64,000 nucleotides of DNA from Candidatus Omnitrophota bacterium (GTDB taxonomy: Bacteria > Omnitrophota > Gorgyraeia > 2-01-FULL-45-10). Of this stretch, positions 3,334-57,045 are shown piece after piece. The first letter of the stretch is position 1, and each line of letters begins with the position of its first letter. The translations under genes were made by a program, and so were the position numbers. The stretch spans positions 13,379-77,378 of the forward strand of contig JAGVGJ010000003.1 of the NCBI GenBank assembly GCA_020057115.1. The letters run 5' to 3'. Below the pieces are notes generated by a model. That model was not told where the DNA came from, did not search any database, and saw only the letters and a program-made list of their open reading frames with translations.

Positions 3334-4180
3334 TCTTCATGCCATCCTCTTTGTATCCCAGTCTTATGTCATCATACATCGACACGGCGCTCGTGCCGGT
3401 ATGTTCCGCATTAGTCATGAATGCCACAGCTCCGACATTCTTCTCAGGCTTCCTGCCGAATACCTTTATATAATCCGCGACTATATCCCTCTCTTCGGAG
3501 AACCACTTCTTGTCCGGGTTAGGGCCGGACCTAACCACTATTATCTTTATATTCTTCGAGTAAGGGCTTGTCCCTGTCTCGCCCGCTGGAACGTTCTCCG
3601 TCCATATATACTCGAGGACTTTATAGTTCAGGATAAAATTTGCCGGGAATATGACATAGACCCTGGCCGCGAAATCGCTCTCATCCTCGGTCTCCAAGCT
3701 CTCTTTATGTTTTTTGACCGGGAATTCTTCTACATTCCACTTCCAGCTTATAATAGGGTTCTTCGTTTTTGCATTAAGCTCTATCTTATAATATAAAGCG
3801 GATGCGCTCGCCTTGGAGGTGGCCCTCACATAATCGATGCTCTTGTCCTTCTCTACCTCGTATACAACCCTGCCCTTAAATACCTTCTCCTCCCATTCTT
3901 TGAGAGCGCTTTCCTGGGAGAATGGGAATAACTTTACAAGGCTCACCTTATACTTCTCTATCTCTCTAAGCTTCGCCTGACCGAACTTCTCTATATGTCT
4001 CTTATATACTCCTGGCATCTCAAGGATAGCCTTATGAAAGCCGTCCTTTTGTAAACGCGATAATATGCCCGGGGCAAGGAATACTATGGCCAGGATGATG
4101 GCCGATATGAGGATCCTTATAGGATTATTTATATAATAGTGGCGTCTCTTCATATAGGGTGATTTGTAAAATTTTACCAT
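3263..4180 (-). CDS. membrane-anchored DUF3047-like protein
   Basis: N-terminal TM then about 250-aa domain; family assignment tentative and from memory. Confidence 0.4.
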   Translation of the reverse strand: MVKFYKSPYMKRRHYYINNPIRILISAIILAIVFLAPGILSRLQKDGFHKAILEMPGVYKRHIEKFGQAKLREIEKYKVSLVKLFPFSQESALKEWEEKVFKGRVVYEVEKDKSIDYVRATSKASASALYYKIELNAKTKNPIISWKWNVEEFPVKKHKESLETEDESDFAARVYVIFPANFILNYKVLEYIWTENVPAGETGTSPYSKNIKIIVVRSGPNPDKKWFSEERDIVADYIKVFGRKPEKNVGAVAFMTNAEHTGTSAVSMYDDIRLGYKEDGMKNGQYQGGKELEKTDKKEETVIGR

Positions 4181-4250: not shown

Positions 4251-5780
4251 TTAGAAGTTAACCGTTACTGAACCAACGAGATCCGTGGCTGTGGCATCAT
4301 TGTTGCCATAGTACACGTGTGCTCCAGGCATAAAGAAAGCCCCGAGGACGCTAAAGGTCACGTCTTCGGTATATGCCCAATCAGCGCTCAGATCTATTTC
4401 CTGGCCGATCAATCCGCCGTACTTATTGGCAGAGCTGCCGGGAGAAGAGTTTGAGGTCCTGATGACATAATCTTCATATGTCCAGAACAGGTTATAGTTA
4501 CCTCTTATCGTCAAGCTCTCGAGCGGCTGTATGCTGGCAGAGAATATTAACTGATTTTGATTGGTGAACGATGCATCGGCTGTCGGAGCATAGAAATCTG
4601 CTGTTGTCCGATAGTCGTACGTCGCATAGTATCTGCCAACCCATTCACGGATATGTGAATCGAATTTACCTCTGTACATCGGATCCCATCCGGCATAAGC
4701 CGTGCCATCGTTATTACCATTGGCATCATCCCTGTTACCGGAATATAGGATATACTCTGCTCCGAGTTTCGGTTTCCATGAGCATTTGTCCATGAAATAC
4801 CTCCACTCAGCGGCTAGGTCAAGCGCCCATGCAGAGCGGCTTCTGAGAGTCGTCTGCTGGGTTGCTCCAACGTAGCTTCCGAACTGATAAGCGACTTCAC
4901 CCGATATCGTCACTACATCGATAGGGTCAAAGCTGCCTCTTATACCTACTGTGTTAACGTTATTGTCGCCCTTTGCAACCCATCTCTCAACCTGGGAATC
5001 CTGCTTAAGGAACCAATAACCTTCAGCCTCAGCCTTATAGGCATCGAACTTATAACCAACGTTCACGCCGTAGAGGTTGACATCATCATCATCGCCGGTA
5101 GCATTTTCCCATATCTTGGAATAAATGCCGGTGATCGTCCATGGATCATAATCGAGGACTACCTTCACGGCATCAAACGCATGCATCTTCGACTGCTCAG
5201 GAGCAGTAAGGTTTAAGCTGCTGGTGTTGTCGAGATTAGCGCCGACGATGAAACCCTTACCGAGCCAAAGGTTCTGGCGTCCGATCGTCACTGTGAGCGG
5301 TGAATAGATGAAGTCTTTGAGAGTTACGTAAGCAAGCTCAAGCTCGACATCGAACTCATTACCGTTCGTGCCGTAAGCGCCGGCCTGGAAGCCCTGAGGG
5401 GTGTTGCCACCGGGGCCATTGATAGCTGAACCGACATTATAAGTCTTCGCTCTTACATTCCAATCTCTCTCATTGAGCAGTCTGATGACGGTCTGGACAT
5501 TGTCCGTGAGGTCCGCATCTATCTGCACTTCAGTCGTAGACATGAACCAAGAATTGTCATTACGCTGTTCCGGAACGCCGGTATCAGCCGTCATGCCATT
5601 CCTTGATCCGTTAAGAACTATGTCTGACTCAGGTGATGATGTTCTCAGCTCATAGTTGCTCCTGCCGATCCCTGTGATAGAGAGATCGCCGCTAACTTTT
5701 ACGCTTTGGGTCTCGGCGTATACGCTTGCTGTTACCAGTAGCGCTAACGCTATGATCCCAAGGATTCTAAAAAACTTCAT
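4251..5780 (-). CDS. outer-membrane beta-barrel protein (putative porin)
   Basis: Signal peptide MKFFRILGIIALALLVTASVYA, alternating amphipathic strands, C-terminal ...VTVNF (terminal Phe). Confidence 0.6.
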   Translation of the reverse strand: MKFFRILGIIALALLVTASVYAETQSVKVSGDLSITGIGRSNYELRTSSPESDIVLNGSRNGMTADTGVPEQRNDNSWFMSTTEVQIDADLTDNVQTVIRLLNERDWNVRAKTYNVGSAINGPGGNTPQGFQAGAYGTNGNEFDVELELAYVTLKDFIYSPLTVTIGRQNLWLGKGFIVGANLDNTSSLNLTAPEQSKMHAFDAVKVVLDYDPWTITGIYSKIWENATGDDDDVNLYGVNVGYKFDAYKAEAEGYWFLKQDSQVERWVAKGDNNVNTVGIRGSFDPIDVVTISGEVAYQFGSYVGATQQTTLRSRSAWALDLAAEWRYFMDKCSWKPKLGAEYILYSGNRDDANGNNDGTAYAGWDPMYRGKFDSHIREWVGRYYATYDYRTTADFYAPTADASFTNQNQLIFSASIQPLESLTIRGNYNLFWTYEDYVIRTSNSSPGSSANKYGGLIGQEIDLSADWAYTEDVTFSVLGAFFMPGAHVYYGNNDATATDLVGSVTVNF

Positions 5781-6940: not shown

Positions 6941-7228
6941 TTATTTCGTGCTCACGTTCGTGCGCAGCGTCTGGGCCTTGGCCTTTGCAGAACCTTCAGC
7001 AATACCATCGCTCATATTCTGAAAATGGCTTGTGGTCGGAATTTTCGGGCCGCTGAACGTAACGACCTTGTTCTTCTCTTTTCCGGGACCGAGTGTCATG
7101 GAATCCGCCATCTTCTGGAATAGCGAACCTTCTTTTGAGCCTTCGCACTTGCCGCAGCTTGCGAAAGCCGGAACTGCGAACGCAACTACCACTGCTACTA
7201 CCAATACCAACAATGCTATCTTCCTCAT
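6941..7228 (-). CDS. small secreted protein (signal peptide, 95 aa)
   Basis: MRKIALLVLVVAVVVAFAVPAFA signal; GGAGGAAG RBS. Confidence 0.5.
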   Translation of the reverse strand: MRKIALLVLVVAVVVAFAVPAFASCGKCEGSKEGSLFQKMADSMTLGPGKEKNKVVTFSGPKIPTTSHFQNMSDGIAEGSAKAKAQTLRTNVSTK

Positions 7229-11709: not shown

Positions 11710-13023
11710 TTACGCAAGCTTCTCGATTAAATACTCTTTGATGTTGGCGATGTCGATCCTGTCCTGCAGCATCGTATCCCTGTCGCGGACCGTGACCTTC
11801 TTGTCCGCGAGACTGTCCACGTCGACAGTCACGCAATACGGCGTGCCCACCTCATCCTGGCGCCTGTAAAGCCGCCCGATCGAGGCAGTATCATCGTACA
11901 TCACCTTCATCTCTTTCCTTAAGCCATTGGTTATATTCTTCGCAAGCTCGACTATCTCGGGCCTGTTCCTCAAAAGCGGCAGCACCGCCACTTTTAAAGG
12001 GGCAAGCCTCTTGTGGAATGCGAGACTCACGCGTTTTTCGCCTTTGACCTCCTCTTCTCTGTACGCATCCGCCAGGAACGCAAGGATCGACCTGTCTATC
12101 CCGCCCGACGGTTCAATTACATAAGGTATATACCGTTCTTTGGTGACCTCGTCAAAAAATACAAGGTCTTTGCCCGAGAGCTGCATGTGTTGTTTCAAGT
12201 CAAAGTCGGTCCTGTTGGCGATACCCTCAAGCTCCGACCATCCGAACGGGAAATTGTATTCTATGTCCGTACACGCCTTGGCATAATGGGCGAGTTCGGT
12301 CTTCTCGTGCTCCCTCTTCCTTAAATTCTCTTTTCTGATGCCGTATTTTATATACCAGCCGTAACGCTCCTCCACCCATTTGCGGTACCAATCCTCATCC
12401 GTGCCGGGCTTTACAAAGAACTCTATCTCCATCTGTTCGAACTCGCGGGAGCGGAATGTAAAGCTTTTTGTGGTGACTTCATTGCGGAATGATTTTCCCA
12501 TCTGAGCTACGCCGAACGGGACTTTACGGCGCATGGAATTCACTACATTCTGGAAATTGACGAATATGCCCTGGGCCGTCTCCGGCCTCATATAGGTGAG
12601 GCTTGTGGCATCTTCGATAGGTCCGAGGTGGGTCTTGAGCATCATGTTGAATTGCCTCGGCTCGGTGAGCTCGCCGCCGCACTCCGGGCATTTTTTGCCG
12701 GTGATATTCTCGACCTTGAAGCGCTTCTTGCAGCCCTTACAATCGACAAGCGTGTCTTCGAAATTTGATACGTGCCCTGACGCCATCCAGGTCATCGGGT
12801 GCATAAGTATAGCCGCGTCAAGGCCGTCTATATCATCGCGCTCATATACATTTGAGCGCCACCACACCTCTTTTAAGTTGCGTTTAAGCTCAGCGCCCAG
12901 CGGGCCATAGTCCCATGTAGCGGCCAGGCCTCCGTATATCTCGCTTGATTGGAATACAAAACCGCGCCTCTTGCAAAGCGATACTATCTTCTCCATCACA
13001 TCTTGCGTTTGGGCCTGCTGCAT
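11710..13023 (-). CDS. glyQS: glycine--tRNA ligase, class II alpha2 type
   Basis: EIYGGLAATWDYGPLG N-terminus, class II motifs, 437 aa. Confidence 0.9.
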   Translation of the reverse strand: MQQAQTQDVMEKIVSLCKRRGFVFQSSEIYGGLAATWDYGPLGAELKRNLKEVWWRSNVYERDDIDGLDAAILMHPMTWMASGHVSNFEDTLVDCKGCKKRFKVENITGKKCPECGGELTEPRQFNMMLKTHLGPIEDATSLTYMRPETAQGIFVNFQNVVNSMRRKVPFGVAQMGKSFRNEVTTKSFTFRSREFEQMEIEFFVKPGTDEDWYRKWVEERYGWYIKYGIRKENLRKREHEKTELAHYAKACTDIEYNFPFGWSELEGIANRTDFDLKQHMQLSGKDLVFFDEVTKERYIPYVIEPSGGIDRSILAFLADAYREEEVKGEKRVSLAFHKRLAPLKVAVLPLLRNRPEIVELAKNITNGLRKEMKVMYDDTASIGRLYRRQDEVGTPYCVTVDVDSLADKKVTVRDRDTMLQDRIDIANIKEYLIEKLA

Positions 13024-13636
13024 ATTGTTATCTTTGCCTTATAACTAATGTAATTACAAATAGGGGTGGGAAAAACTTGGATATCTTAACATGCGCCTCT
13101 TATAAAATCAAGAGAAAACGATGAGATGATAATTTTTTCGGCCGCTGGCTTCTCTCCCCTCTCGGGGTGGTAAGGGTGTCTTCCAGCGAACGTTCACTTT
13201 CCAGAGGAAAGTTCACTCGGAAGGCCGCAATCTTCGTTGAAAGATTGCGGCCTTCGACGTCGCTTCCAGACACCCTTACCACCCCTCGGGGGCCCCTTCG
13301 AGTGGGCCAAAAAATATGGGGAGTGGAAACTGGTTCACTATCTCGAGTAAAACTGAGGCATGATTGGAAAAAATGAAGGAAGAATTTTCCTCATGGAGTA
13401 GGCGCGGCCCGCTGGGGTGGGTCTTGAAGCGGCCTTGAAAAATTTTGATACCTTATGCCAATTTAGCAAGGCCGGACAAACCTGTCAATTGCTTTACTTA
13501 TAGTCCGGGTTGGCCGGCCATCAAAATTTTTCGGAGTGAGCGAAGATGGCTAATCTGAGCGAACGTCCGCGTAAAGACCCACCCCAAAAGGGCCGATAGC
13601 CTTCATGGGAAGGAAAATTCTGACTGGGGGAAATTT
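13024..13636 (-). promoter_or_regulatory. about 600-bp ORF-free structured region (glyQS leader / downstream of rSAM) with nested long inverted repeats
   Basis: 17-bp perfect inverted repeat ggggtggtaagggtgtc/gacacccttaccacccc (13165-13181 vs 13272-13288) enclosing a 15-bp hairpin; 12-bp pair ggggtgggtctt/aagacccacccc (13404-13415 vs 13577-13588); further CCCACCCC near the glyQS RBS. Confidence 0.5.
13460..13488 (-). promoter_or_regulatory. sigma-70 promoter TTGACA-17-TAAATT inside the structured region, directed toward glyQS
   Basis: Minus strand TTGACAggtttgtccggccttgcTAAATT. Confidence 0.4.
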
Positions 13637-14701
13637 TCAGTGCAAAATTGACCTGATGTTCGGGGTGAATTTTGTCTTGGCTTCGCAGCCGCCTGTCTCA
13701 GAATAACAAAAAGACGGGTAACCGGTAAGCGCCGACTTTCTCAGCTCGATATAACGTTTTGAATTCCATATCTTGCCGATAGGCTCATTCATGATATTGC
13801 CCATGCCCGAATCGCATTTATAATTTGCCAGATAACAGCAAGGGACCACATCGCCATCTGAACGTATCATCATATGTTTCCATGGGCGCGGGCATCTCCA
13901 CGCTGAACCGGGAAGAGCGGACTTCGACACTTCCTCCTTGGTTTTGCGATATCCGTACATCGTACATACGATCCCTTTATATTTTGCATAAGCAACCGCC
14001 ATCTCCATAGCCGGAGTAGCCAGATCATCGGACACCTCAAGCTCAGGACAATTGTGCACACGCTGGAAAGCGAGTGAACCAAATTCATGCTCAACGGCGA
14101 AGTCCACCATTCCGTTCAACCTGTCGATATTCAGCTTATTAACGAGGCAGTGGCATTCTTTGGATAAAGCGCTCTTCAGTCCGATCCGCTTGTCATTCAA
14201 CGCCCTAAGACTGCTCACCAATCGCTTCCAGGACCCGCCCCTCCTTATCCGCTCATAAATATCGGGGTCGCTGCTGTCTATAGAAAATATCAGGTTGACG
14301 TTCGGAGACTTGCATAAGAGCGCTGCTATCTTATCGTCGTCAAGCAATAATCCATTGGTCGTTATTTGAACCTTGAGATCTTTGAACCTTGCGCACTTTT
14401 CAATGAATGGACCGATATCGGCATTCAGCAATGTCTCTCCCCAGCCATTGAGCTCTATCAATTCCAAATAGCCAAGCCACCCGCTCTTGACTATTTTATC
14501 GAATAGGCCGGGAACAGCGCGCCTTCCCCATTCAATATTCTCTTTTTCGCTGCGGCACATCACGCAGTGGAGGTTGCATAAAGTGCCCGGCTCGATCTGC
14601 AGCCATGTCGGCACGCTCTTTAACGCCAGTTTGCCTTCAATAAATTCTGAATGATTAAGCCTTTTATTCCTAAGGAACATGCGTCTTTCCAGGCCGAACA
14701 T
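13637..14701 (-). CDS. radical SAM protein with C-terminal SPASM domain (peptide/protein-modifying maturase family)
   Basis: CNLHCVMC (Cx3Cx2C), GWGETLL, and C-terminal Cys-rich SPASM segment (CPRPW...CCYLANYKCDSG...C). Confidence 0.8.
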   Translation of the reverse strand: MFGLERRMFLRNKRLNHSEFIEGKLALKSVPTWLQIEPGTLCNLHCVMCRSEKENIEWGRRAVPGLFDKIVKSGWLGYLELIELNGWGETLLNADIGPFIEKCARFKDLKVQITTNGLLLDDDKIAALLCKSPNVNLIFSIDSSDPDIYERIRRGGSWKRLVSSLRALNDKRIGLKSALSKECHCLVNKLNIDRLNGMVDFAVEHEFGSLAFQRVHNCPELEVSDDLATPAMEMAVAYAKYKGIVCTMYGYRKTKEEVSKSALPGSAWRCPRPWKHMMIRSDGDVVPCCYLANYKCDSGMGNIMNEPIGKIWNSKRYIELRKSALTGYPSFCYSETGGCEAKTKFTPNIRSILH

Positions 14702-14705
14702 AATA

Positions 14706-15512
14706 TCACTGCCTCTCCAGATCCTTCATGAATTCCACCGTCCTGAGACGGCGCTCTATGTGATAATCGAGAAACCTGCGCAGGACCTGTTCGAGCTCCC
14801 TGCCCACGTCCTGCGAGACCTTGACGCGGTCGATCTTGTCGAACGGCGAGTTCTGGATATACTCGATGAACTTTACCGTACCGGGTAACATCGGCCGCGC
14901 CGATTTATCCGCCCCAAGGCAGGTCTTGCACAATAGACCGCCGTTGCGAAGGCTAAAACGCGCCGCACCGTCTAGCGCCCCGCCGCAGCTGGCGCACTCG
15001 GTCATGGCCGGCATGAGCCCTATCAGGCTTAAAAGCTTTATTTCGAATATCCTGGCGACGCGCTTCGCGCTCGCGTCGGTACATAATAATTTGAGGCTGT
15101 TCACCGTAAGATCATATGCCTCTGGGTTCGCGTCGCCGAGCGTCGTCACGGAGTCGAGGAGCTCTATCATGTAAGTGGCGTGGGCTAGCCTGTCAAGGGA
15201 TTCTCTGGCTGGGCTGAAGAACTCGGCAAGGTCGCACTGCGACACCGTGAAGATATCGCCCTTCTTCCTGTCGTAGAATACTATATCGTCGCGGCTGAAT
15301 ATCTCAAGCGCCGCGCCGCCCTGTGAGCCGCGCGAGCCGCGTACGCCCCTCAAGATGCCTTTTATCTTGCCGAAATCCCTGGTGTAGAAAGTGACTATGA
15401 GGCTCGTCTCTCTGAGTTCCTGCTTCCTTAAAATGAGAGCCTCTGATTTTTGGATGGTCAATTTCAGCCTATTTTGATTAACGAAGTAATTGGAATATGA
15501 GGGTCGTGACAA
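14706..15512 (-). CDS. recO: DNA repair protein RecO
   Basis: OB-fold N-terminus and CASCGG...CKTC zinc motif. Confidence 0.85.
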   Translation of the reverse strand: MSRPSYSNYFVNQNRLKLTIQKSEALILRKQELRETSLIVTFYTRDFGKIKGILRGVRGSRGSQGGAALEIFSRDDIVFYDRKKGDIFTVSQCDLAEFFSPARESLDRLAHATYMIELLDSVTTLGDANPEAYDLTVNSLKLLCTDASAKRVARIFEIKLLSLIGLMPAMTECASCGGALDGAARFSLRNGGLLCKTCLGADKSARPMLPGTVKFIEYIQNSPFDKIDRVKVSQDVGRELEQVLRRFLDYHIERRLRTVEFMKDLERQ

Positions 15513-16176: not shown

Positions 16177-16610
16177 AATCTCTCCAGTACCTTCTCCTGT
16201 TTTCTCGACATCCTCGCGCGGGCATCTTTCGTATAGTCCTCGTATCCGAATAGATGAAGGATGCCGTGTATCACGTAAAGCGCTATCTCTTCTTCCAGGC
16301 GCGTGCCATATATGGCGCAGTTCTTAACGGCCGTATCGGTTGAGATGAATATCTCCCCAAAAAACCCGTCCTCGCCAAACTCGCCGGATGCGATATTGAA
16401 ACTTAAGACATCGGTGGCGCGGTCTTTGCCCCTGTATTTCCTGTTGAGCGGCCTGATGGCTTTATCGCTTAAAAATACCACCTCGAGCGAGCCCATGCCG
16501 CGCCTCTTTATTATGCCGAGGACTTCAAGGACCAGGCGCCTTATAAATCTTTCGTCCAGCCTGAAGGTCTTGTTGCGGTTATCTATCCGTATCTTTGGGA
16601 GCGCTGTCAT
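16134..16610 (-). CDS. ybeY: rRNA maturation RNase YbeY
   Basis: HGILHLFGYEDY metal-binding motif. Confidence 0.85.
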   Translation of the reverse strand: MTALPKIRIDNRNKTFRLDERFIRRLVLEVLGIIKRRGMGSLEVVFLSDKAIRPLNRKYRGKDRATDVLSFNIASGEFGEDGFFGEIFISTDTAVKNCAIYGTRLEEEIALYVIHGILHLFGYEDYTKDARARMSRKQEKVLERLCTKIDLSKVLMRR

Positions 16611-17554
16611 TTCTTCAGTTTGTCGTAGGCCTTTATTATCTCCTGGACGAGCTCATGCCTTACGACATCCTCGCCCTTAAGATAGGTGAACTTTATCCCT
16701 TCGATATTGCCGAGCAAGTCGCGCACGTGAGAAAGGCCCGAAACCTTATGGCTCGGAAGGTCCGACTGGGTTATGTCGCCTGTTATAACGGTCTTGGAAT
16801 CGAATCCGAGGCGCGTCAGGAACATCTTCATCTGCTCGGGCGTAGAATTCTGCGCTTCATCCATTATTATGAATGAATCATTGAGCGTCCTGCCCCTCAT
16901 GTAGGCGAGGGGCACTATCTCTATCACGCCCCTCTCGACGCAATCCTTGATCTTGTCGATCTCCATCATGTCATAGAGCGCGTCATAGAGCGGCCTGACA
17001 TAAGGAGTCACTTTTTCATTGAGATCTCCCGGAAGATACCCGAGGCTCTCTCCGGCCTCCACCGCCGGCCTAGTCAATATGATCCTCGACACAAGTTGTT
17101 TCTTTAAAGCATTGACCGCCATTGCTACGGCCAGATATGTCTTTCCCGTGCCGGCCGGACCTATGCAGAAGACGATGTCATTATGCCTTATGGAATCTAC
17201 GTATTCCTTCTGGCCTGCCGATTTTGGCGTGATATACTGCCGCTTTGAGGATACCTCGATCCGGTCTAAATATATGCTGTGTATGTCGCGCGTCTGGTCC
17301 TTCTTTATCGCCTGGATGGCATAAATGATCTCATGCTTCTTAAGGATCCCGCCGTTACGGAGGGTGATGACGAGTTCTTCGACGAGCCTTGAGGCAAGTT
17401 CGACCCCTTTCGGCTCGCCCTGTATCTTGAGCGCGTCTCCCCTCGTCGCAAGAGTAATGCCGAATTCCGCCTCGATGATCTTAAGGTTCTCATCGTGCGT
17501 GCCGAACAGCGCGCGCGCTTCCGCGGTATCTTTTATTTTGAAGAGCTTTTCCAT
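16607..17554 (-). CDS. phoH: PhoH-family ATPase (YbeZ-like)
   Basis: Walker A GPAGTGKT, Walker B IIMDEAQ. Confidence 0.85.
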   Translation of the reverse strand: MEKLFKIKDTAEARALFGTHDENLKIIEAEFGITLATRGDALKIQGEPKGVELASRLVEELVITLRNGGILKKHEIIYAIQAIKKDQTRDIHSIYLDRIEVSSKRQYITPKSAGQKEYVDSIRHNDIVFCIGPAGTGKTYLAVAMAVNALKKQLVSRIILTRPAVEAGESLGYLPGDLNEKVTPYVRPLYDALYDMMEIDKIKDCVERGVIEIVPLAYMRGRTLNDSFIIMDEAQNSTPEQMKMFLTRLGFDSKTVITGDITQSDLPSHKVSGLSHVRDLLGNIEGIKFTYLKGEDVVRHELVQEIIKAYDKLKK

Positions 17555-26326: not shown

Positions 26327-27454
26327 TTATGCTTTCCTGATTTTCCTTACCGCAAGCCCGATCGCTGCACCGAGGAATGATATGATAGTTGAAGGTTCCG
26401 GCACTCCTGGTGATGGCGGCGGTTCACTAAAGTGATCGCCGGCGGTGCCTTGATATAAGCCATCCTCAATTACCCGATTATTGCCATAGCCCGCAATCCG
26501 GTCTGGAAGGGGCGGAGCATCAAAATAAAGAATAGGTTCCCAGTTCCCTCCAGAAAACGTACCATTTACTGTAACAAAAAGAGTTGTCATATTATAATAA
26601 GTGTCTTCATCCATAGATCCAAAAACTGTTGTATACCATTCGGAAGCCATAGGACCTGTCGATACACCTGTCAGGCCTGTTACCCCGTTCATAGTGAAAG
26701 ATACGTGAAGGCCGAGTCCGTCTTCAGTATAAAGAGAGGTATCATAATCATACGGCGTCAGCATTGAAAAAACACCAGTGTTCATATCCGCGTCATACTC
26801 ATATTTATAAAGAAAGCCGCCGAGCACGGGGCCGTCAGTCAGCCATCCATCAGATAAAACACCGTATGTATCGTCCCATCGGCTACCGCCTTGATACTGG
26901 GTACTCTCTACAGACCCGCTACCGCTGAGCTGTGTTAAAGTCCCCTCATTATAATCCCATTGCACCGGCCCGGAAGGATCAGTATCATAGTCAGGCCCGT
27001 GGAGCACAAAAGTCGAGAAATTCAATTTCCAGCCGGAGCTTACCGCATCTGCAAAATTCACATCCACTGCCAAAGGATTCATAAGATCTCTCTCCGCGGT
27101 TCCGGTAAATGAAACCGGGCTCGGGGCATTAATGGTCAAGGTTGCGGATCCCGGTACATTTATCTCCGATTGCCAGAAACTAAGGTCCCAGCCATAGCCA
27201 TTTAAACCCAGATCCGGGCCTTGCTGTTGTGTGAGAAGGAGCGGATTAGGATCATCCTGGGGCACTTCTACGCTGCCATAATAGTCATACCAGCCGGTCC
27301 CGTAAGTTAAAGAGCCGTGATCGCTATCCCAACAGGATACAAGTGTAAACTGAGTATCCGTACCACCGCCACCGCCACCACCGCCTGCGATCGCAGGAAC
27401 CGTGAAAGCCAGCATAAAGCCTATAGCCATCATCGTTATCAGTATGTTTTTCAT
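26327..27454 (-). CDS. PEP-CTERM sorting-domain secreted protein
   Basis: Start trimmed to MKNILITMMAIG (GAAGG RBS); poly-Gly linker; C-terminal VPEPSTIISFLGAAIGLAVRKIRKA = PEP-CTERM motif, TM helix and basic tail. Confidence 0.75.
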   Translation of the reverse strand: MKNILITMMAIGFMLAFTVPAIAGGGGGGGGTDTQFTLVSCWDSDHGSLTYGTGWYDYYGSVEVPQDDPNPLLLTQQQGPDLGLNGYGWDLSFWQSEINVPGSATLTINAPSPVSFTGTAERDLMNPLAVDVNFADAVSSGWKLNFSTFVLHGPDYDTDPSGPVQWDYNEGTLTQLSGSGSVESTQYQGGSRWDDTYGVLSDGWLTDGPVLGGFLYKYEYDADMNTGVFSMLTPYDYDTSLYTEDGLGLHVSFTMNGVTGLTGVSTGPMASEWYTTVFGSMDEDTYYNMTTLFVTVNGTFSGGNWEPILYFDAPPLPDRIAGYGNNRVIEDGLYQGTAGDHFSEPPPSPGVPEPSTIISFLGAAIGLAVRKIRKA

Positions 27455-27483
27455 TTTATCGCCTTCAACCTTCTGCAAGCCAA

Positions 27484-27516
27484 TAAAAAATCCCAACCTT
27501 CAAAAAGATTGGGATG
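27484..27516 (-). terminator. intrinsic-terminator-like hairpin in 5' leader (expression platform candidate)
   Basis: Minus strand AUCCCAAUCUUUUUGAAGGUUGGGAUUUUUUAUU located between conserved leader motif and RBS. Confidence 0.5.
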
Positions 27517-27527
27517 CAAAGCAATGA

Positions 27528-27613
27528 CTCGCGTTTTACGTTACGCTTATAAACGGCAACTGGCTGCCATCGTCCTCTCGGACTTTAGGCCCTATAGCTT
27601 TGCGTCCACACCC
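27528..27613 (-). ncRNA. conserved PEP-CTERM leader motif, copy 1 (candidate cis-regulatory RNA)
   Basis: Shares ...CAGGGCCUAA-[hairpin]-AUGGCAGCCAGUUGCCGU-...ACGU.AAA.CGAG with copy 2; hairpin GUCC-GAGA-GGAC here versus UCUCC-GUA-GGAGA in copy 2 (compensatory). Confidence 0.5.
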
Positions 27614-27843
27614 TTTCGAGTGGTTTGCGATTTATACACCGTCAAAAAGAACATACTTCTTCGTTCTAATTATAGAATACACTATATTGTATGTTAAGTC
27701 AATAGAAGCTTTGCTGCCTATTTTCTCGCCACCCTCAGATGATCTATTTTAACACCTTATAGTCAAGCAAAAACAGAGCATGCATATCACGCCCAATATT
27801 ATCATTTCTGTTATGAATATTTCCTTTCCGTTTCTCGTAATTA

Positions 27844-30800
27844 TCATTTTTGTTTTTTGCATATACATCCTCTCCTTTTTAAAAGTCTTCGATAACCGAG
27901 CATAAAAATACCGCTTATTATACTCACGACCGTCGCCGGCTCAGGAACTGAATTAAGAGGCTCGGGATCTCCCTGGTTGCTATAATAAGGATTACCCAGC
28001 GAAAAACCTGTAAATGAAGTGCCTCCTGTTATGGTGACGAGCTTGTTAACCTCATCTATGCTTGTGGTGGTGAACTTATGCCACAGGTTATCGCTACCAT
28101 AGTGGTATACGGTGAGGTCTGCCGGCAATATGCCTAGTGAGTTTAACAACAGCTCATCATACCTGAAGATTATGTCGACAGAGCCGAATACAAGCGACGG
28201 CGCTTCATCGCCAGGATTCTCGCCCCAGGTATATGTGTGAGCCCCTGACGCTACCTGTATGGCCGGGAGGGTCAGCTTACCTTGATTGGTGGCGAACCAT
28301 CCGTTTGTTGTGGTGTTGTCTATGGTATTCGTGACGCTTGCAAAGCCTGACATATCAAGCGTGCCGCCGTCAGCTATTATGCGGCCGTTATTGGTAAGGG
28401 TGCCTGTCATGCCTACAGCGCCTTGGCCCTGGAAGATTCCTGCTACGTCACTGGTATTTCTCACGACAAGATTACCCCCGCTTAATCCATCGCCGCTTAG
28501 GGTGAGTATTCCTGTGCCGCTATTTCCGATGATAACATTTCCGGCGGTAAGCGTCTTTCCGCTTGCCAGGGTGAACGAGCCGGTCGTGCTTGCAGCATTA
28601 CCGACATTAAAGTTCTCTATACTGATATCATTACTTGATAGCGCGAGCATTCCGCCGTCCATATTAATGGTGCCTGTGCCTGCAATATTATTTATGGATG
28701 TGGCATTAAGCGTCCCGCCGCTGTTTAGGTTCAATGTGCCTGTGCCGATAGTGACTACTTTGGCATTAGCCGTATCGCCTATATTCGCAACTGCGCTTGT
28801 AGCATCTATGGCGACATTGTTCGTAGCTTGCGGTATCACCTGAGGATTCCAGCTTGAGGCGCTTGACCAATTGCCTGTAGTCGTGTTCCACACTAGGTCC
28901 CCAAATGAGAATGTGAGTACTAGGTTTGTGCCTACTACGTTCTTGGTAAAGCTGCCTGAGCCGAACTGGTTGTCTATGGATGAGGTATCCGTAAAGCTCT
29001 TAGATAAATCCCACGAGAGGATATTAAAGGTATTGCCCTCGGCTATAGACCATGTGCCATACTTGGCTATCCTTAATGTGCCGTCTAGGCTTACATCTCC
29101 TCCGTTAACGTCTATGGTGTCATAGTATTGGCCGGGGGTCCCGCCTATGCCGCCGAGCTCGAATATTATAGTACCTGAATTTGTGAAGTTGCCGTTTATC
29201 GTGGTAAGCCCGGGTGAATTACCTGGAGACAGCGTGCCGCCTGACTGCACATTCAATGCGCCGTTAAATGTGTTCACGCTTAACGTGCCGCCTGTGAAAT
29301 TAAAGGCACTTGTGCCTGAGCCTCTTGTTATCGTTGTAGCCTTCAGATATCCGCCTTGGAGGTCATAGGTGCCGCTTGAGCCGACGTTATTACCTAAAAT
29401 AATAACGCCTGCCTGGTTCGTGCCACCTGTCTGAGTAAATGTGCCTTTGCCGGAAGCGCCGATATATTCAGTCTTGCCGGTTGCGTCAAGTAAGCCTGTC
29501 CCGGAAAGTGAATAGACGCCTGTGGCGCCTGCAGCGGAACCGATAGTGAGCGTGCCTTTCACTGAGGTGACGCCGGCTGACTGGGTGTACGTGCCGTTTG
29601 CACCGGCGCCGTTATACCCTATGCTGATCTGATAAGCATCGTTCGTGCCGCCTGTCTGGGTGAATGTGCCCTTACCCAGGTTTCCGATATATTCATATAA
29701 AGTTTTAGAATCAATGTAACCTGTGCCGGAAAGATTATAACTGCCTGAGGAGCCTGAGGCATTGCCTACATTCAGGGAACCTGCGCCTCCTGATAATATT
29801 TTGGCCGTTCCGCCTGACTGCGTGTAAGTGCCGTTTGAAAGGTTATTATTACCTACATTAATAATTTTTGCCTGGTTGGTGCCGCCTGTCTGGGTGAATG
29901 CGCCTGTTCCGGTGGATCCTATGTTTTCGGTTGCATTTGTCCCATCTATAAGGCCTGTGCCGGAGAGAAAATAACTGCCTTCGGAAGTGCTGTTATTGCC
30001 AACGTAGAAGGCGCTTGTTACTGTATTTGTCCCGCCCGACTGGGTGTATGTGCCGCTTGAACCTGAACTATTACCTATATATATAGTAGCCGTCTGATTC
30101 GTACCACCGGACTGAATTAGAGTGCCTTTTCCGGAATTGCCGATGTATTCCGTAGGAGCTGAAAGGAAGCCACCCGACACAGAATATGTTCCTGAAGATC
30201 CTGACAGATTGCCAACGCTGAATGTGCTTATTCCTTTATATGTCCCGCCTGTCTGTGTATATGTGGCGTTTGAGCCGGAAGAATTACCGATATTTAAATT
30301 AGATACAGCCATGGAATTGGCGGTCAATGTGAATGTGCCGCCGTCTATATTTAAAGTACTTGTGCCCACAGGAGCTGCTATTGCATTTGTTACGCTTAGC
30401 GCTCCGCCGCTTAATGTATATGTGCCGTTGCCGCCTGTACCTGTCGCGAGACCTAGCGTCGCGGCAATATTAGTGTCGCCTGATTGGGTGAATGTGCCTG
30501 CGCCTGAGGTACTTATAGATTCACTGGTTGTTGTCAGCGTGCCGCCTGTCATATTGATATTGCCGCTATCGCCTGAATTTTGGGCGAGATATAAATTAGC
30601 CGCGGCTGCTCCGGCAGTCGTGATGGACACTGTCCCGCCATTATTAATAGAGACGGCGTCCGAACTTGTGGGCACACCGGTCGTCCAGCTGCCAGAAGTA
30701 CTCCAATCGTCTGTAGTCGCTTGCCACATATTATTGTCATAGCCGATCGCGAGGTCGCCTGTAAAAGCAGCGACACTGCCAAAACTAGTCGTAGTCAACC

Positions 30801-32277
30801 AATTATTCGTAGTATCAACACTTGAAGTAACATCTGCCCATGCGCTGCCATTATACCGGTAGATCTTTAGGTTAGCCTCATGCGAACCTGCCAATAGATC
30901 ATCGTACCTGAAAATGATATTTGTTGAAGTGGCCGTAAAACTTGCAGGGACAACGTTGTAGTAACTTATCAAAGTGCTTGTTGCGAGCGGATGGATGTCG
31001 GAGGTCCTATCAAGAGAAAGAAGCGACATGGTCAGTGATCCGGAGGCACCTGATTCCCCTGCGAATGTAAATCGAGCGCTATTGACAAGGTCTATAGTAG
31101 TATCACTGGGAGCCTCCCCCCAATTGTAAGAACCATTTCCTGTTATCGAAAGTGCCTTCAAGGTCAGCTTACCTTTATTCTGGGCAAACCATCCGTTCGT
31201 CCCGCCTGTAGTCGGATTCTCCATGGTATTTCCAATGCCATTTACGACATTTGCAAGACTCAAAGTCTGTTCAGCGCCATAGCCATCAGCGATAACGCGG
31301 CCGTTATTGACGAGCGCGCTATAAGTCACTGTAGGCGAGCCGTATCCCATGAGTGTGCCTGAGGCTCCTGCATCCTGGCGAACAGTCATGCCAACGTTGG
31401 ATATAAATGTTCCGCCTTTAAGTTCGTATGTTCCGCTTCCGCTGGCACCAGCTCCTATATAAACGTTTCCTACCCCCACCCGATTAGTACCGCCCGTCTG
31501 GACAAATCTGCCGCTGCCAGATTTACCTATATATTCACTCGCACTAGACGAAAGGTCGCCTCCGGATAAAATATAAGTACCTGCGGCGCCTGCCTCTGAG
31601 CCGATCATAAGGCCGGTACTTGTTATTCTGACTGTCCCGCCAGATTGGGTGTATGTGCCGCTTAAGCCGCTGTAAAAACCTACGGTAATATTAATCCCCT
31701 GGTTCGTGCCGCCAGTTTGAGTAAATGTGCCTGTTCCGTTACTACCGATGTATTGAGCTGCGGTGGTAGTTGTATCTAAAATACCTGTGCCGGAGAGAGA
31801 ATAACTGCCTTTAGAGCCAGCGCCATCGCCAAGGTAGAGTGACCCTGTTACTTTGTTTGTCCCGCCTGATTGGGTAAATGTGCCTGTACCGTATTGGCCT
31901 AAAGTTTCATAATACACCGTTAGATTGCCGGATGTCATGTTCACGGTTCCGGTGGTGCCAGCAAATTGGCCTAAAGTGAGATCATACGTGGCTTCGCTTG
32001 GCTGCGTGATATTTACTATGCCATTGTTATTTACTTTTGAATAATCACCGGACGCCGGTTCTGTGCCTCCCCAGTTGGAGCCCGTGGACCAATCGCCCGC
32101 ATTGCCGGCAGCTCGCGACCAAACTCTAGTTGCCGCGACAGCGGGCGGGGCATGTACCATGGCTATTAACGATATGACCATAAAAATTCCGATGCTAAGA
32201 GTAGCGATCTTTCTAAACAATGCCCTCACCCCTTTCAGGTTTTTGTGAATCATTTTATTTGTTGATCTATTTTTCAT
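27844..32277 (-). CDS. giant PEP-CTERM protein (1477 aa) with about 40-aa Gly/Thr/Ser-rich beta-strand repeats
   Basis: Start trimmed to MKNRSTNK (AGGA RBS); signal peptide; more than 20 repeats of GTFTQ(S/T)GGTN...; C-terminal VPEPATVVSIISGIFMLGYRRLLKRR PEP-CTERM. Confidence 0.8.
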   Translation of the reverse strand: MKNRSTNKMIHKNLKGVRALFRKIATLSIGIFMVISLIAMVHAPPAVAATRVWSRAAGNAGDWSTGSNWGGTEPASGDYSKVNNNGIVNITQPSEATYDLTLGQFAGTTGTVNMTSGNLTVYYETLGQYGTGTFTQSGGTNKVTGSLYLGDGAGSKGSYSLSGTGILDTTTTAAQYIGSNGTGTFTQTGGTNQGINITVGFYSGLSGTYTQSGGTVRITSTGLMIGSEAGAAGTYILSGGDLSSSASEYIGKSGSGRFVQTGGTNRVGVGNVYIGAGASGSGTYELKGGTFISNVGMTVRQDAGASGTLMGYGSPTVTYSALVNNGRVIADGYGAEQTLSLANVVNGIGNTMENPTTGGTNGWFAQNKGKLTLKALSITGNGSYNWGEAPSDTTIDLVNSARFTFAGESGASGSLTMSLLSLDRTSDIHPLATSTLISYYNVVPASFTATSTNIIFRYDDLLAGSHEANLKIYRYNGSAWADVTSSVDTTNNWLTTTSFGSVAAFTGDLAIGYDNNMWQATTDDWSTSGSWTTGVPTSSDAVSINNGGTVSITTAGAAAANLYLAQNSGDSGNINMTGGTLTTTSESISTSGAGTFTQSGDTNIAATLGLATGTGGNGTYTLSGGALSVTNAIAAPVGTSTLNIDGGTFTLTANSMAVSNLNIGNSSGSNATYTQTGGTYKGISTFSVGNLSGSSGTYSVSGGFLSAPTEYIGNSGKGTLIQSGGTNQTATIYIGNSSGSSGTYTQSGGTNTVTSAFYVGNNSTSEGSYFLSGTGLIDGTNATENIGSTGTGAFTQTGGTNQAKIINVGNNNLSNGTYTQSGGTAKILSGGAGSLNVGNASGSSGSYNLSGTGYIDSKTLYEYIGNLGKGTFTQTGGTNDAYQISIGYNGAGANGTYTQSAGVTSVKGTLTIGSAAGATGVYSLSGTGLLDATGKTEYIGASGKGTFTQTGGTNQAGVIILGNNVGSSGTYDLQGGYLKATTITRGSGTSAFNFTGGTLSVNTFNGALNVQSGGTLSPGNSPGLTTINGNFTNSGTIIFELGGIGGTPGQYYDTIDVNGGDVSLDGTLRIAKYGTWSIAEGNTFNILSWDLSKSFTDTSSIDNQFGSGSFTKNVVGTNLVLTFSFGDLVWNTTTGNWSSASSWNPQVIPQATNNVAIDATSAVANIGDTANAKVVTIGTGTLNLNSGGTLNATSINNIAGTGTINMDGGMLALSSNDISIENFNVGNAASTTGSFTLASGKTLTAGNVIIGNSGTGILTLSGDGLSGGNLVVRNTSDVAGIFQGQGAVGMTGTLTNNGRIIADGGTLDMSGFASVTNTIDNTTTNGWFATNQGKLTLPAIQVASGAHTYTWGENPGDEAPSLVFGSVDIIFRYDELLLNSLGILPADLTVYHYGSDNLWHKFTTTSIDEVNKLVTITGGTSFTGFSLGNPYYSNQGDPEPLNSVPEPATVVSIISGIFMLGYRRLLKRRGCICKKQK

Positions 32278-32304
32278 TTTTTTCCTGGACCCTAAAACAA
32301 AGAT

Positions 32305-32378
32305 CCCAACCACGCATACTGCATGATTGGGAGTTAAAATAAAAATCCCGACCTACATTTCTAGATCGGGAGATAAAA
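32305..32378 (-). terminator. two tandem intrinsic-terminator-like hairpins in 5' leader of giant PEP-CTERM gene
   Basis: CUCCCGAUCUAGAAAUGUAGGUCGGGAUUUUUAUUUU then CCCAAUCAUGCAGUAUGCGUGGUUGGGAUCUUUGUUUU, immediately before the RBS. Confidence 0.45.
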
Positions 32379-32380
32379 AC

Positions 32381-32468
32381 TCTCATCTCGCTTTCACGTA
32401 AGCAAATACGGCAACTGGCTGCCATTGTCTCCTACGGAGAGTTAGGCCCTGTAGTTTTGCCACGCCAT
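32381..32468 (-). ncRNA. conserved PEP-CTERM leader motif, copy 2
   Basis: See copy 1; identical 18-nt core AUGGCAGCCAGUUGCCGU; near-identical promoters (TTAACA-17-TATAAT versus TTAACA-17-TAGATT) upstream of both. Confidence 0.5.
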
Positions 32469-32659
32469 ATTATTTGATTGGCGCGATCCCGCGCTATTCG
32501 TAGGGATGTCGCCGGGTTTCCCCGGGTTTGCTATTATCCGAAACACCTAAAGAACAATGCCAAGCTCGATCACAAATCTAGTATATCTTATAATCTATGT
32601 TAAAGCAATAGAAACCTAGCTTCCTATTTCCGTGTTAACGGGTGATTGGAAAAAGATAA

Positions 32660-55748: not shown

Positions 55749-55800
55749 CAAGATAGCAAGATAAGGCAAGATAAGGTAAGGCCAAGATAAGCAAGATAAG
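55749..55800. repeat. tandem 9-mer array (CAAGATAAG x about 5)
   Basis: caagatagcaagataaggcaagataaggtaaggccaagataagcaagataag. Confidence 0.7.
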
Positions 55801-56034
55801 GGACGTTTCTAAATCTGATCTTGGGACGTTTGTAAATTCCATCCTGCACCTGTCCCCTAACTTTTTAGTGGACTGGCGCGATTTTTAATTTTGGGACATG
55901 CGTAAGATGGATTTTAGAAATATTCCTATATCTGTTTATGCCTATATATTGTATCCCTCCTTCCCGGGGACAGGTGTGATCTTAAATTTGGGGACACATG
56001 CAGGATGGAATTTAGAAACGTCCCTAATTTTTGC
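55798..56034. repeat. cluster of four 35-bp GGGAC-N25-GTCCC palindromic units in mixed orientation
   Basis: Units at 55798-55815 (partial), 55821-55857, 55901-55936, 55989-56034; the second and fourth are near-exact inverted copies (gggacgtttgtaaattccatcctgcacctgtcccc versus rc gggacgtttctaaattccatcctgcatgtgtcccc). Confidence 0.7.
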
Positions 56035-56079
56035 CTCTGGACCCTTGACCCTGGACCCTTGACCCTCTATAATATCTGG
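56030..56079 (+). promoter_or_regulatory. heptamer repeat copy providing TTGACC-17-TATAAT promoter; dus mRNA apparently leaderless
   Basis: tggacccTTGACCctggacccttgaccctcTATAATatctggATG: -10 ends 8 nt before the ATG. Confidence 0.45.
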
Positions 56080-57045
56080 ATGCTGAAGATCGGCAACAAG
56101 AAGATCGAGACCAATATTTTCCTCGCGCCCTTATCCGGATGCTCGGACCTCGCGTTCAGGATGATAGCCAGGGAACATGGCGCAAAGTTCTGTTTCTTCG
56201 AGATGGTAGATTCGCACTCTATGATCTACAACCGCAAGAGGACCCTCTCGATACTAAAGACAGACGAGAAGGACAGGCCTATCGCGGGCCAGCTCCTGGG
56301 GCGCGATCCCTCCATAATGCTCGAGGCCGCGCTCAAGATGCTCGAACTGGTAGATATGCCATTTATAGACATCAACTGCGCATGTCCGGCGAAGAAGGTC
56401 ATAAAGAAGAAGGCCGGATCATATCTTCTGAAAGACACCGAAAGCCTTTATAAGGTAGTGAAGAAGCTCGCGTCATCCCTCCCCGTGCCTGTCACCGTAA
56501 AACTAAGGATCGGATTTGACAAGAAAGATGCCGGAGAGATAGCCGAGACCGCCAAAAGGTGCGAGTCGAGCGGCGCGGCCGCGATATTCGTCCACGGAAG
56601 GACGCGCGAACAAGGGTATAGAGGCGACATCGACCATGCTTCGATCAAGGCGATAAAAGACGCTGTGGGCATACCTGTCATCGGCGGCGGGAACATATTC
56701 TCGCCGGAGCTGGCCAAAAAGATGTTTACGGAAACCGGATGCGATGGTATATTTGTCGCAAGAGGCGCTTTCGGTAACCCGTGGATATTCAATGACATCG
56801 AGCGATATATTAAGACCGGAAGGCTGCCGTCTCCCGTAAGCGCCGAGACCAGAAAAGAGGTCCTAGAAAAGCACCTCTCTTATATCGAGACGTATAAGGA
56901 GATGCGGCCCGCTTCGCGGGTCAACTGCATGCGAAAAGCCGTCATCTGGTATGTAAAAAGCTTGCCTCACGCTTCAAGGATACGCGATACCGCATGCCGC
57001 GCGAGAAGTTATGAAGAGATGGTCGACATCGTCGACAAAATATAA
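56080..57045 (+). CDS. dus: tRNA-dihydrouridine synthase
   Basis: Start trimmed to MLKIGNKKIE; FMN-binding TIM barrel with catalytic Cys (INCACPAKKV). Confidence 0.85.
   Translation: MLKIGNKKIETNIFLAPLSGCSDLAFRMIAREHGAKFCFFEMVDSHSMIYNRKRTLSILKTDEKDRPIAGQLLGRDPSIMLEAALKMLELVDMPFIDINCACPAKKVIKKKAGSYLLKDTESLYKVVKKLASSLPVPVTVKLRIGFDKKDAGEIAETAKRCESSGAAAIFVHGRTREQGYRGDIDHASIKAIKDAVGIPVIGGGNIFSPELAKKMFTETGCDGIFVARGAFGNPWIFNDIERYIKTGRLPSPVSAETRKEVLEKHLSYIETYKEMRPASRVNCMRKAVIWYVKSLPHASRIRDTACRARSYEEMVDIVDKI

Follow-up and report, generated by a model that had tools for sequence, protein, structure and literature searches.

A 64,000-nucleotide stretch of the genome of a Candidatus Omnitrophota bacterium (contig JAGVGJ010000003.1; this whole stretch is called the window below) carries, on its minus strand between recO and glyQS, a gene for a radical S-adenosylmethionine (SAM) enzyme of 354 amino acids. 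We found that the gene is a lineage-specific single-gene insertion in an otherwise conserved junction, that it appears to be a functional copy, and that its product is predicted to end in a Twitch-type domain with one auxiliary iron-sulfur cluster instead of the SPASM domain first assigned to it. These structural and evolutionary parts (Twitch type, insertion and intactness) are, taken together, very probable. The explanation as a whole, namely that a Twitch radical SAM enzyme, functional and acquired by horizontal transfer, is expressed by read-through from recO and acts on a carbohydrate-type substrate, is put forward tentatively, as our leading reading but with something less than an even chance. 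The protein belongs to a known superfamily and domain class, and its subfamily is uncharacterised and very rare.

The open reading frame (ORF) and its spacing are exactly as the original prediction described: the recO stop codon TGA occupies 14708-14706 and the ATG of the radical SAM gene is at 14701, which leaves a gap of 4 bp (tatt). The cluster-binding motif CNLHCVMC is also present, as C42-N-L-H-C46-V-M-C49. Because seven homologues were found at 50-58% identity, with E-values of 1e-111 to 1e-132, the ORF is a real gene and not a chance ORF. The protein matched Pfam Radical_SAM (PF04055) at residues 36-174 (53.1 bits, cut-off 29.5) and Pfam SPASM (PF13186) at residues 270-332 (58 bits, cut-off 21.5). 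The partial TIM-barrel fold of the radical SAM superfamily was found, and the AlphaFold2 model of the protein reached a pLDDT of 89.1 and a pTM of 0.88. The three cysteines of the CX3CX2C motif (C42/C46/C49) do not vary within the family or among distant homologues. The family alignment also shows conservation of a GGE-like GWGET motif and of an SxD ribose motif. The features discussed here are collected in Table 1.

Table 1. Position of the radical SAM gene, its predicted motifs and its neighbouring elements in the window
Feature	Coordinates	Strand	Basis and remarks
Predicted Twitch-domain radical SAM enzyme gene	13637..14701	-	Intact ORF, 354 aa, ATG start; PF04055 + PF13186
CNLHCVMC codons, C42-x3-C46-x2-C49, radical SAM [4Fe-4S] motif	14555..14578	-	Sequence
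Predicted Twitch-type auxiliary-cluster domain, residues 270-339: C270-x12-G283-x4-C288-C289 ... C332-x6-C339	13685..13894	-	Family alignment; BtrN alignment
Shine-Dalgarno-like GGAGAGG, 10 nt 5' of the radical SAM ATG, within the recO 3' end	14712..14718	-	Sequence
recO, upstream neighbour, last ancestral gene of the operon	14706..15512	-	Exact start codon uncertain
Long hairpin 1	13157..13292	.	Inverted repeats I1/I3; 33-nt arms, inner perfect 15-bp stem-loop; -101 kcal/mol, z=-9.5
Long imperfect hairpin 2	13413..13586	.	Inverted repeats I2/I4; -80 kcal/mol, z=-4.85
glyQS promoter-like element: TTGATT, 17-nt spacer, TG-n-TAAGAT	13083..13111	-	Conserved in four-genome junction alignment
glyQS (single-chain glycyl-tRNA synthetase, GlyRS), downstream neighbour	11710..13023	-	ORF; 78-83% identical to GlyRS of Omnitrophota metagenome-assembled genomes

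A SPASM domain is defined by the seven-cysteine pattern CX9-15GX4C-gap-CX2CX5CX3C-gap-C and binds two auxiliary clusters, and Twitch domains are shortened SPASM domains with one auxiliary cluster (PMC6231123, PMC9012708). The Twitch cysteines are placed one before a beta-hairpin, one after it and two past the following helix (PMC6231123). In the family alignment the only invariant C-terminal cysteines were C270, C288, C289, C332 and C339, five and not the seven of SPASM; the CX2CX5CX3C block was absent, and the C-terminus is reached 15 residues past C339. Five such cysteines suffice for one cluster. The AlphaFold2 model showed a hairpin (E276-279/E284-286) and a helix (315-326) in this domain. 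The SPASM block was found in none of the 148 best representatives, nearly all of which end in a BtrN-like C-x2-C, and the C-x6-C terminal pair C332/C339 is specific to the family. BtrN was the top match in a HMMER profile search of all PDB sequences (E=1.6e-12); its Twitch ligands C169, C187 and C232 aligned to C270, C288 and C332, and C339 lies 7 residues beyond C332. The original prediction had described a Cys-rich C-terminal SPASM domain. A Pfam SPASM match was indeed obtained, but the seven-cysteine motif was not found, and the PF13186 match by itself does not discriminate, because the model spans the half common to SPASM and Twitch domains and BtrN aligns over the same region. We concluded that the C-terminal domain is, by its cysteine pattern, of the Twitch type and not SPASM sensu stricto, and that it probably holds a single auxiliary cluster. 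As a separate observation, C103, C183, C185 and C289 fall outside both predicted cluster motifs and are invariant in the family, with C183-x-C185 on barrel strand beta-5; these residues could form a second metal site, act as an H-atom donor or have a structural role.

The insertion is seen by comparison with related genomes, as the original prediction had proposed to do. The minus-strand order in the window is hisS, aspS, phoH, ybeY, a dgkA/PAP2 fusion, recO, the radical SAM gene, a 613-bp gap, glyQS and ppdK. Among the nearest Omnitrophota representatives, the GlyRS of the window is 83% identical to that of locus L012, 80% to L013, 79% to L015 and 78% to L014. Locus L012 reads hisS-aspS-ybeY-dgkA/PAP2-recO-glyQS-ppdK, with the recO end 95 bp from glyQS, and the recO-glyQS gap is 347 bp in L014 and 492 bp in L015. 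When the window proteins were mapped onto L012, L014 and L015, the nearest three relatives that were informative, the radical SAM gene was absent from the recO/glyQS junction in all three. The recO of the window is 65-67% identical to the ORFs at the recO position of L012 and L014, and its 3' end can be aligned with the relatives up to 14712-14722. The conservation claimed for the recO-glyQS junction was borne out, since recO also adjoins glyQS in Omnitrophota loci L018, L020 and L029 and in Rokubacteria/Acidobacteria loci L058, L060 and L068. We concluded that the radical SAM gene is a lineage-specific, orphan single-gene insertion in this junction, as predicted; it is neither a housekeeping gene nor part of an ancestral recO-glyQS arrangement. 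The case rests on synteny and not on composition: a test for foreign composition was not significant (GC z=-1.3, GC z=-0.8 at third codon positions (GC3), codon-usage rank 24/47). No direct repeat flanks the gene in the window (p ~0.4), no integrase or transposase was present among the annotated neighbours, and no flank motif was common to the family loci except the repeat in locus L007 described below. In the same operon, the window has phoH (16607-17554, minus strand) between aspS and ybeY, as do L018 and L029; of the relatives with enough sequence, the two closest have no phoH at this position (in L012 aspS abuts ybeY directly, and L014 has a gap of ~340 bp there).

The structure of the spacer downstream of the gene helps to delimit the insert. 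Over 108 nt the core of hairpin 2 (13425-13532) matches the recO-glyQS spacer of L015 at 76% identity (E=8e-18), and L014 has its own palindrome with 39-nt arms at the same junction. The structured spacer is thus ancestral at least in part, and hairpin 2 does not belong to the insert. The inserted DNA is essentially the ORF alone, ~1.1 kb, between the recO stop and the spacer. An Rfam search of the spacer gave nothing significant, and no further copy of the hairpin motif occurs in the rest of the window. The two hairpins, both very stable, might serve as a terminator or insulator, or represent a structured RNA or an element of the REP (repetitive extragenic palindromic) or MITE (miniature inverted-repeat transposable element) kind. 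The TTGATT/TG-n-TAAGAT element is a candidate glyQS promoter. A search for terminators found no such site separating recO from the radical SAM gene, and the location of the Shine-Dalgarno-like site inside the recO 3' end suggests that the gene may be co-transcribed and translationally coupled with recO. Because the insert was placed just after the recO stop and 5' of the ancestral spacer and the putative glyQS promoter, it would be expressed by read-through from the phoH-ybeY-dgkA-recO operon. Another structured intergenic region of the window, at 55793-56031, has nested inverted repeats (41-nt arms, 88%; 31-nt arms, 81%) of a sequence unrelated to the recO-glyQS hairpins; it lies 5' of, and reaches into the start of, the plus-strand ORF 56005-57045.

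Direct evidence that a gene of this family moves as a minimal single-gene unit comes from one of the homologues. Member P0002 (locus L007) is found between batD and a BatC-like TPR gene and is flanked by a 56-nt direct repeat (51/56 identical; score 87 vs a null maximum of 29) with copies at ~2199-2254 and 3352-3407. The repeat duplicates the last 16 batD codons, and the downstream copy retains the ancestral ATGA overlap of the batD stop with the next gene. This repeat is a clear scar, left when a single gene inserted and ~50 bp of target sequence was duplicated. A distant homologue, P0012 (~30% identity; L094 7001-8200), is likewise a lone gene, in the order infB-rbfA-nrnA-truB-ribF-(EF-G-like)-[radical SAM]-rpsO-pnp.

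The SPASM/Twitch superfamily contains more than 100,000 sequences. The family of the window protein forms 8 clusters at 90% identity, in hosts with GC contents from 39% to 64%. No member was found in 185,579 GTDB species-representative genomes and one family locus was found in 241 million JGI metagenome records; plasmid and phage collections gave matches of 23-27% identity only, or none. An exhaustive HMMER search of 1.84 billion representatives returned the family proper as two clusters only at 50% identity (594-620 bits), beyond which scores fall to ~130-160 bits per domain. At E<=1e-30 the surrounding clade counts 401 representatives, and at E<=1e-10 it counts 15,165. Judged by these scores, the family forms a small, isolated branch of a large Twitch clade that is itself uncharacterised. 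The nearest outgroup (P0039-P0047) includes giant fusion proteins of 860-1,480 aa that combine two or three tandem radical SAM-Twitch modules with TPR arrays or a class-III aminotransferase.

Such an extremely sporadic distribution might also be expected of a functionless hitchhiker, that is, a recent transfer with no role in the host and heading for decay. The separation of the gene from every partner seen in its relatives and the promoterless insertion at operon 3' ends in several hosts point the same way. However, the frame is intact, all 111 of the 111 family-invariant residues are kept, and the window copy has 3 conservative private changes only (F to L, N to S and A to S) at positions that do not vary among the other 7 members, where private changes number 1-9 per member across the family. 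The composition is already host-like, which argues for long residence under selection. We therefore consider a hitchhiker very improbable and take the window copy, from its residue conservation, to be a functional one that is not decaying.

We examined the gene contexts of the relatives for indications of the substrate. No partner gene or small ORF was common to all family neighbourhoods compared, and no homologues of the relatives' partner genes occur in the 64-kb window. Members P0003, P0005 and P0008 form a subclade (mutual identity 56-66%; hosts of 57-64% GC) with a conserved gene pair: the radical SAM gene is followed by a gene for a 690-aa protein that consists of an unidentified N-terminal domain, a GT2 glycosyltransferase domain and a SAM-methyltransferase domain. 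In locus L003 of this subclade the radical SAM gene is the first of a six-gene operon with glycosyltransferases and a hexapeptide acyltransferase, divergent from more glycosyltransferases. Member P0006 is located 22 bp past an AsnB-like amidotransferase gene among glycosyltransferases; the best NCBIfam models for this amidotransferase were the XrtA/PEP-CTERM amidotransferase and asparagine synthase, both sub-threshold. Member P0004 (locus L001) has an 11-bp overlap with an Aas-like acyl-ACP synthetase/acyltransferase gene, itself preceded by an MFS gene, and is followed by genes for a ROK glucokinase, dnaX and recR. Taken together, the relatives are found mostly in clusters of sugar-polymer genes. 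Elsewhere in the comparison set, an ORF upstream in locus L096 was considered as a CE4 deacetylase and was not confirmed by Pfam or PDB.

A carbohydrate-type substrate is favoured because the pair of radical SAM gene and GT2-methyltransferase gene is conserved in three lineages, because a fourth lineage has the amidotransferase/glycosyltransferase context, and because BtrN is the nearest relative by sequence with a solved structure, while DesII and BlsE are among the top folds. It is favoured over a peptide because a RiPP (peptide made by ribosomes and modified after translation) recognition element (RRE), a precursor and the Aux II cluster motif are all absent. The aas context of P0004 and the dgkA/PAP2 gene in the window operon bear on another possibility, a radical SAM enzyme that modifies membrane lipids or a polyprenyl carrier. 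The dgkA/PAP2-recO pair is ancestral and present in relatives without the radical SAM gene, which makes its proximity uninformative; the aas context is confined to one 90% cluster, and the other four contexts contain no lipid genes. We regard a lipid substrate as quite improbable.

For the favoured carbohydrate-type enzyme, the following chemistry is proposed. The CX3CX2C cluster would reductively cleave SAM to give a 5'-deoxyadenosyl radical, this radical would take an H atom from the substrate, and the Twitch cluster would then accept an electron from the substrate radical; an auxiliary cluster as electron acceptor has been proposed for BtrN (PMC9012708). The substrate is most likely not a peptide, and is probably neither a RiPP precursor nor a sulfatase; it might be a nucleotide sugar, or else a glycan precursor, lipid-linked or polymer-bound, that other parts of the genome provide for. 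We infer the substrate class from relatives that are 49-58% identical; the number of clusters, the chemistry and co-transcription are likewise deductions. A bolder version is that the family is a self-sufficient, promoterless single-gene module that inserts at operon 3' ends and performs a new Twitch chemistry on a ubiquitous envelope sugar or lipid-linked glycan precursor. Its examples would be the insertions at recO (window), batD (L007, with the 56-nt target duplication) and aas (L001) and the distant cousin in truB-ribF-rpsO-pnp; the invariant cysteines C183-x-C185 and C103, which are specific to the family, might then provide a second redox or H-donor site. This version is a long shot.

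The original prediction had taken the SPASM domain as the hallmark of peptide and protein maturases. A RiPP maturase of the sactisynthase, ranthipeptide or cross-linking type, with its precursor and RRE partner encoded elsewhere in the genome, would agree with the best structural matches (SuiB, SkfB, CteB, PqqE and ChlB), and SkfB shows that a Twitch enzyme can mature RiPPs (PMC6231123). However, SkfB, CteB and SuiB all carry an N-terminal RRE (PMC6231123), and in the window protein, whose motif begins at residue 42, there is none: only 41 residues precede the cluster motif, and no PqqD Pfam match was obtained. The absence of a Cys-rich or leader-bearing small ORF was confirmed for the 613-bp gap between the radical SAM gene and glyQS, where none (Cys/Gly-rich or leader-like) was found even at a 20-aa threshold; the substrate is not encoded nearby, as the original prediction had it. 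Among the window genes scanned there was no sulfatase, PqqD-like, glycosyltransferase or tungsten-oxidoreductase gene. Elsewhere in the window, a 95-aa ORF (6941-7228, minus strand) was tried as a substrate and rejected: it has two cysteines only and no family match. It carries a signal peptide, and its lipobox-like AFASC precedes GKCEG; the product is probably a small lipoprotein.

The one context that might favour a peptide is in locus L003, where a 92-aa IPTL-CTERM sorting-signal protein with two cysteines adjoins a 92-aa PqqD-like protein (5050-5328 and 5459-5737, both on the minus strand) in the same glycosyltransferase cluster as P0008, possibly as a peptide-recognition pair. The PqqD-like match (26.6 bits) is under its cut-off of 46, on the opposite strand, 2.3 kb off and in one lineage only, and no small ORF is common to the contexts. 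With the SPASM Aux II motif absent as well, a RiPP maturase appears unlikely.

The classification by curated models that the original prediction had called for (anSME versus peptide maturases) supported neither. The NCBIfam scan of the protein gave 45 weak matches, none near its cut-off, and the distant homologues behaved likewise. The peptide-maturase models scored 23-43 bits against cut-offs of 300-850 (265 for mycofactocin), for example StsB 40.5/625, WgkB 37.8/650, mycofactocin 35.1/265, CbpB 34.7/375, AlbA 25.6/850 and SkfB 22.9/300 (bits/cut-off). No anSME model was among the 25 best matches. An anSME-like maturase (anaerobic sulfatase-maturating enzyme) would make formylglycine from a Cys or Ser of some sulfatase whose gene lies elsewhere. 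Such a role might be read into the PF00884 protein on which the P0006 gene converges, but no C/S-x-P-x-R formylglycine motif stands at the expected position of this protein, and no NCBIfam sulfatase model matched it. No sulfatase was present among the window genes examined and the second half of SPASM is absent, and we give this alternative a very slim chance. A prokaryotic viperin (pVip) was also considered and rejected: the PADLOC matches (35 and 25 bits) cover the radical SAM core only, and the NCBIfam model viperin_w_prok scored 25.9 against 180.

Structure comparison gave a flat plateau of scores (SuiB 23.8, SkfB 22.5, DesII 21.3, anSME 21.0, BlsE 20.6, PqqE and MoaA ~19.6). This plateau mixes peptide- and sugar-modifying enzymes, so the fold cannot decide the substrate class, a limit on reading the substrate from the fold that is also stated explicitly in the SkfB paper.

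Outside the recO-glyQS region, two matches to the cyclic di-GMP-I riboswitch were recorded in the window, at 27552-27639 (minus strand, 70.8 bits) and 32407-32476 (minus strand, 36.9 bits). They are directly 5' of a 389-aa ORF (26327-27496) and a 1489-aa ORF (27844-32313), respectively. Neither ORF has a Pfam match, and their GC3 values (z=-2.6 and -2.1) are the lowest of all in the window. These are possibly surface or adhesin-like genes of foreign origin under cyclic di-GMP control.

To our knowledge, almost no biochemistry has been done in the phylum Omnitrophota. If the carbohydrate assignment is true, this small family would extend, by a new reaction, what is known from the few characterised Twitch radical SAM enzymes that act on sugars (BtrN, DesII, BlsE and similar). 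The work also carries a caution for annotation: a Pfam SPASM match at an orphan site is no sign of a hidden RiPP, and since PF13186 picks up one-cluster Twitch domains too, the cysteine motif has to be inspected. The clean single-gene insert in the window, together with the target duplication in L007, may illustrate how accessory enzymes gain expression via housekeeping operons.

Among known systems, anSME, SuiB, CteB and PqqE have the Aux II-binding CX2CX5CX3C...C half, which the window protein lacks. SkfB is a Twitch sactisynthase, but unlike the window protein it has an N-terminal RRE, and its gene shares the skf operon with that of the precursor (PMC6231123). The two best NCBIfam models, N_Twi_rSAM (NF033640; 89.1 bits vs 170) and W_rSAM_matur (TIGR04317; 84.8 vs 380), are likewise the top-scoring ones for the distant homologues; both are far under their cut-offs, and the N_Twi_rSAM match is limited to the radical SAM core. 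DesII and BlsE, which act on nucleotide-sugar or nucleoside-sugar substrates, are 13-16% identical to the protein and are not among its sequence matches of solved structure; no TDP-sugar or blasticidin pathway genes are present. With BtrN (PDB 4M7T), the 2-deoxy-scyllo-inosamine dehydrogenase of the butirosin pathway, the two partial HMMER stretches (20 and 28 bits) and an identity of ~21% fall short of orthology, and no genes of the 2-deoxystreptamine (aminoglycoside) pathway occur in any family context. BtrN nevertheless shares with the window protein the same radical SAM core and C-terminal Twitch domain, with the beta-hairpin 'G-x4-(P)C' and the 'GN..IW' signature, and its substrate is a carbohydrate-like small molecule.

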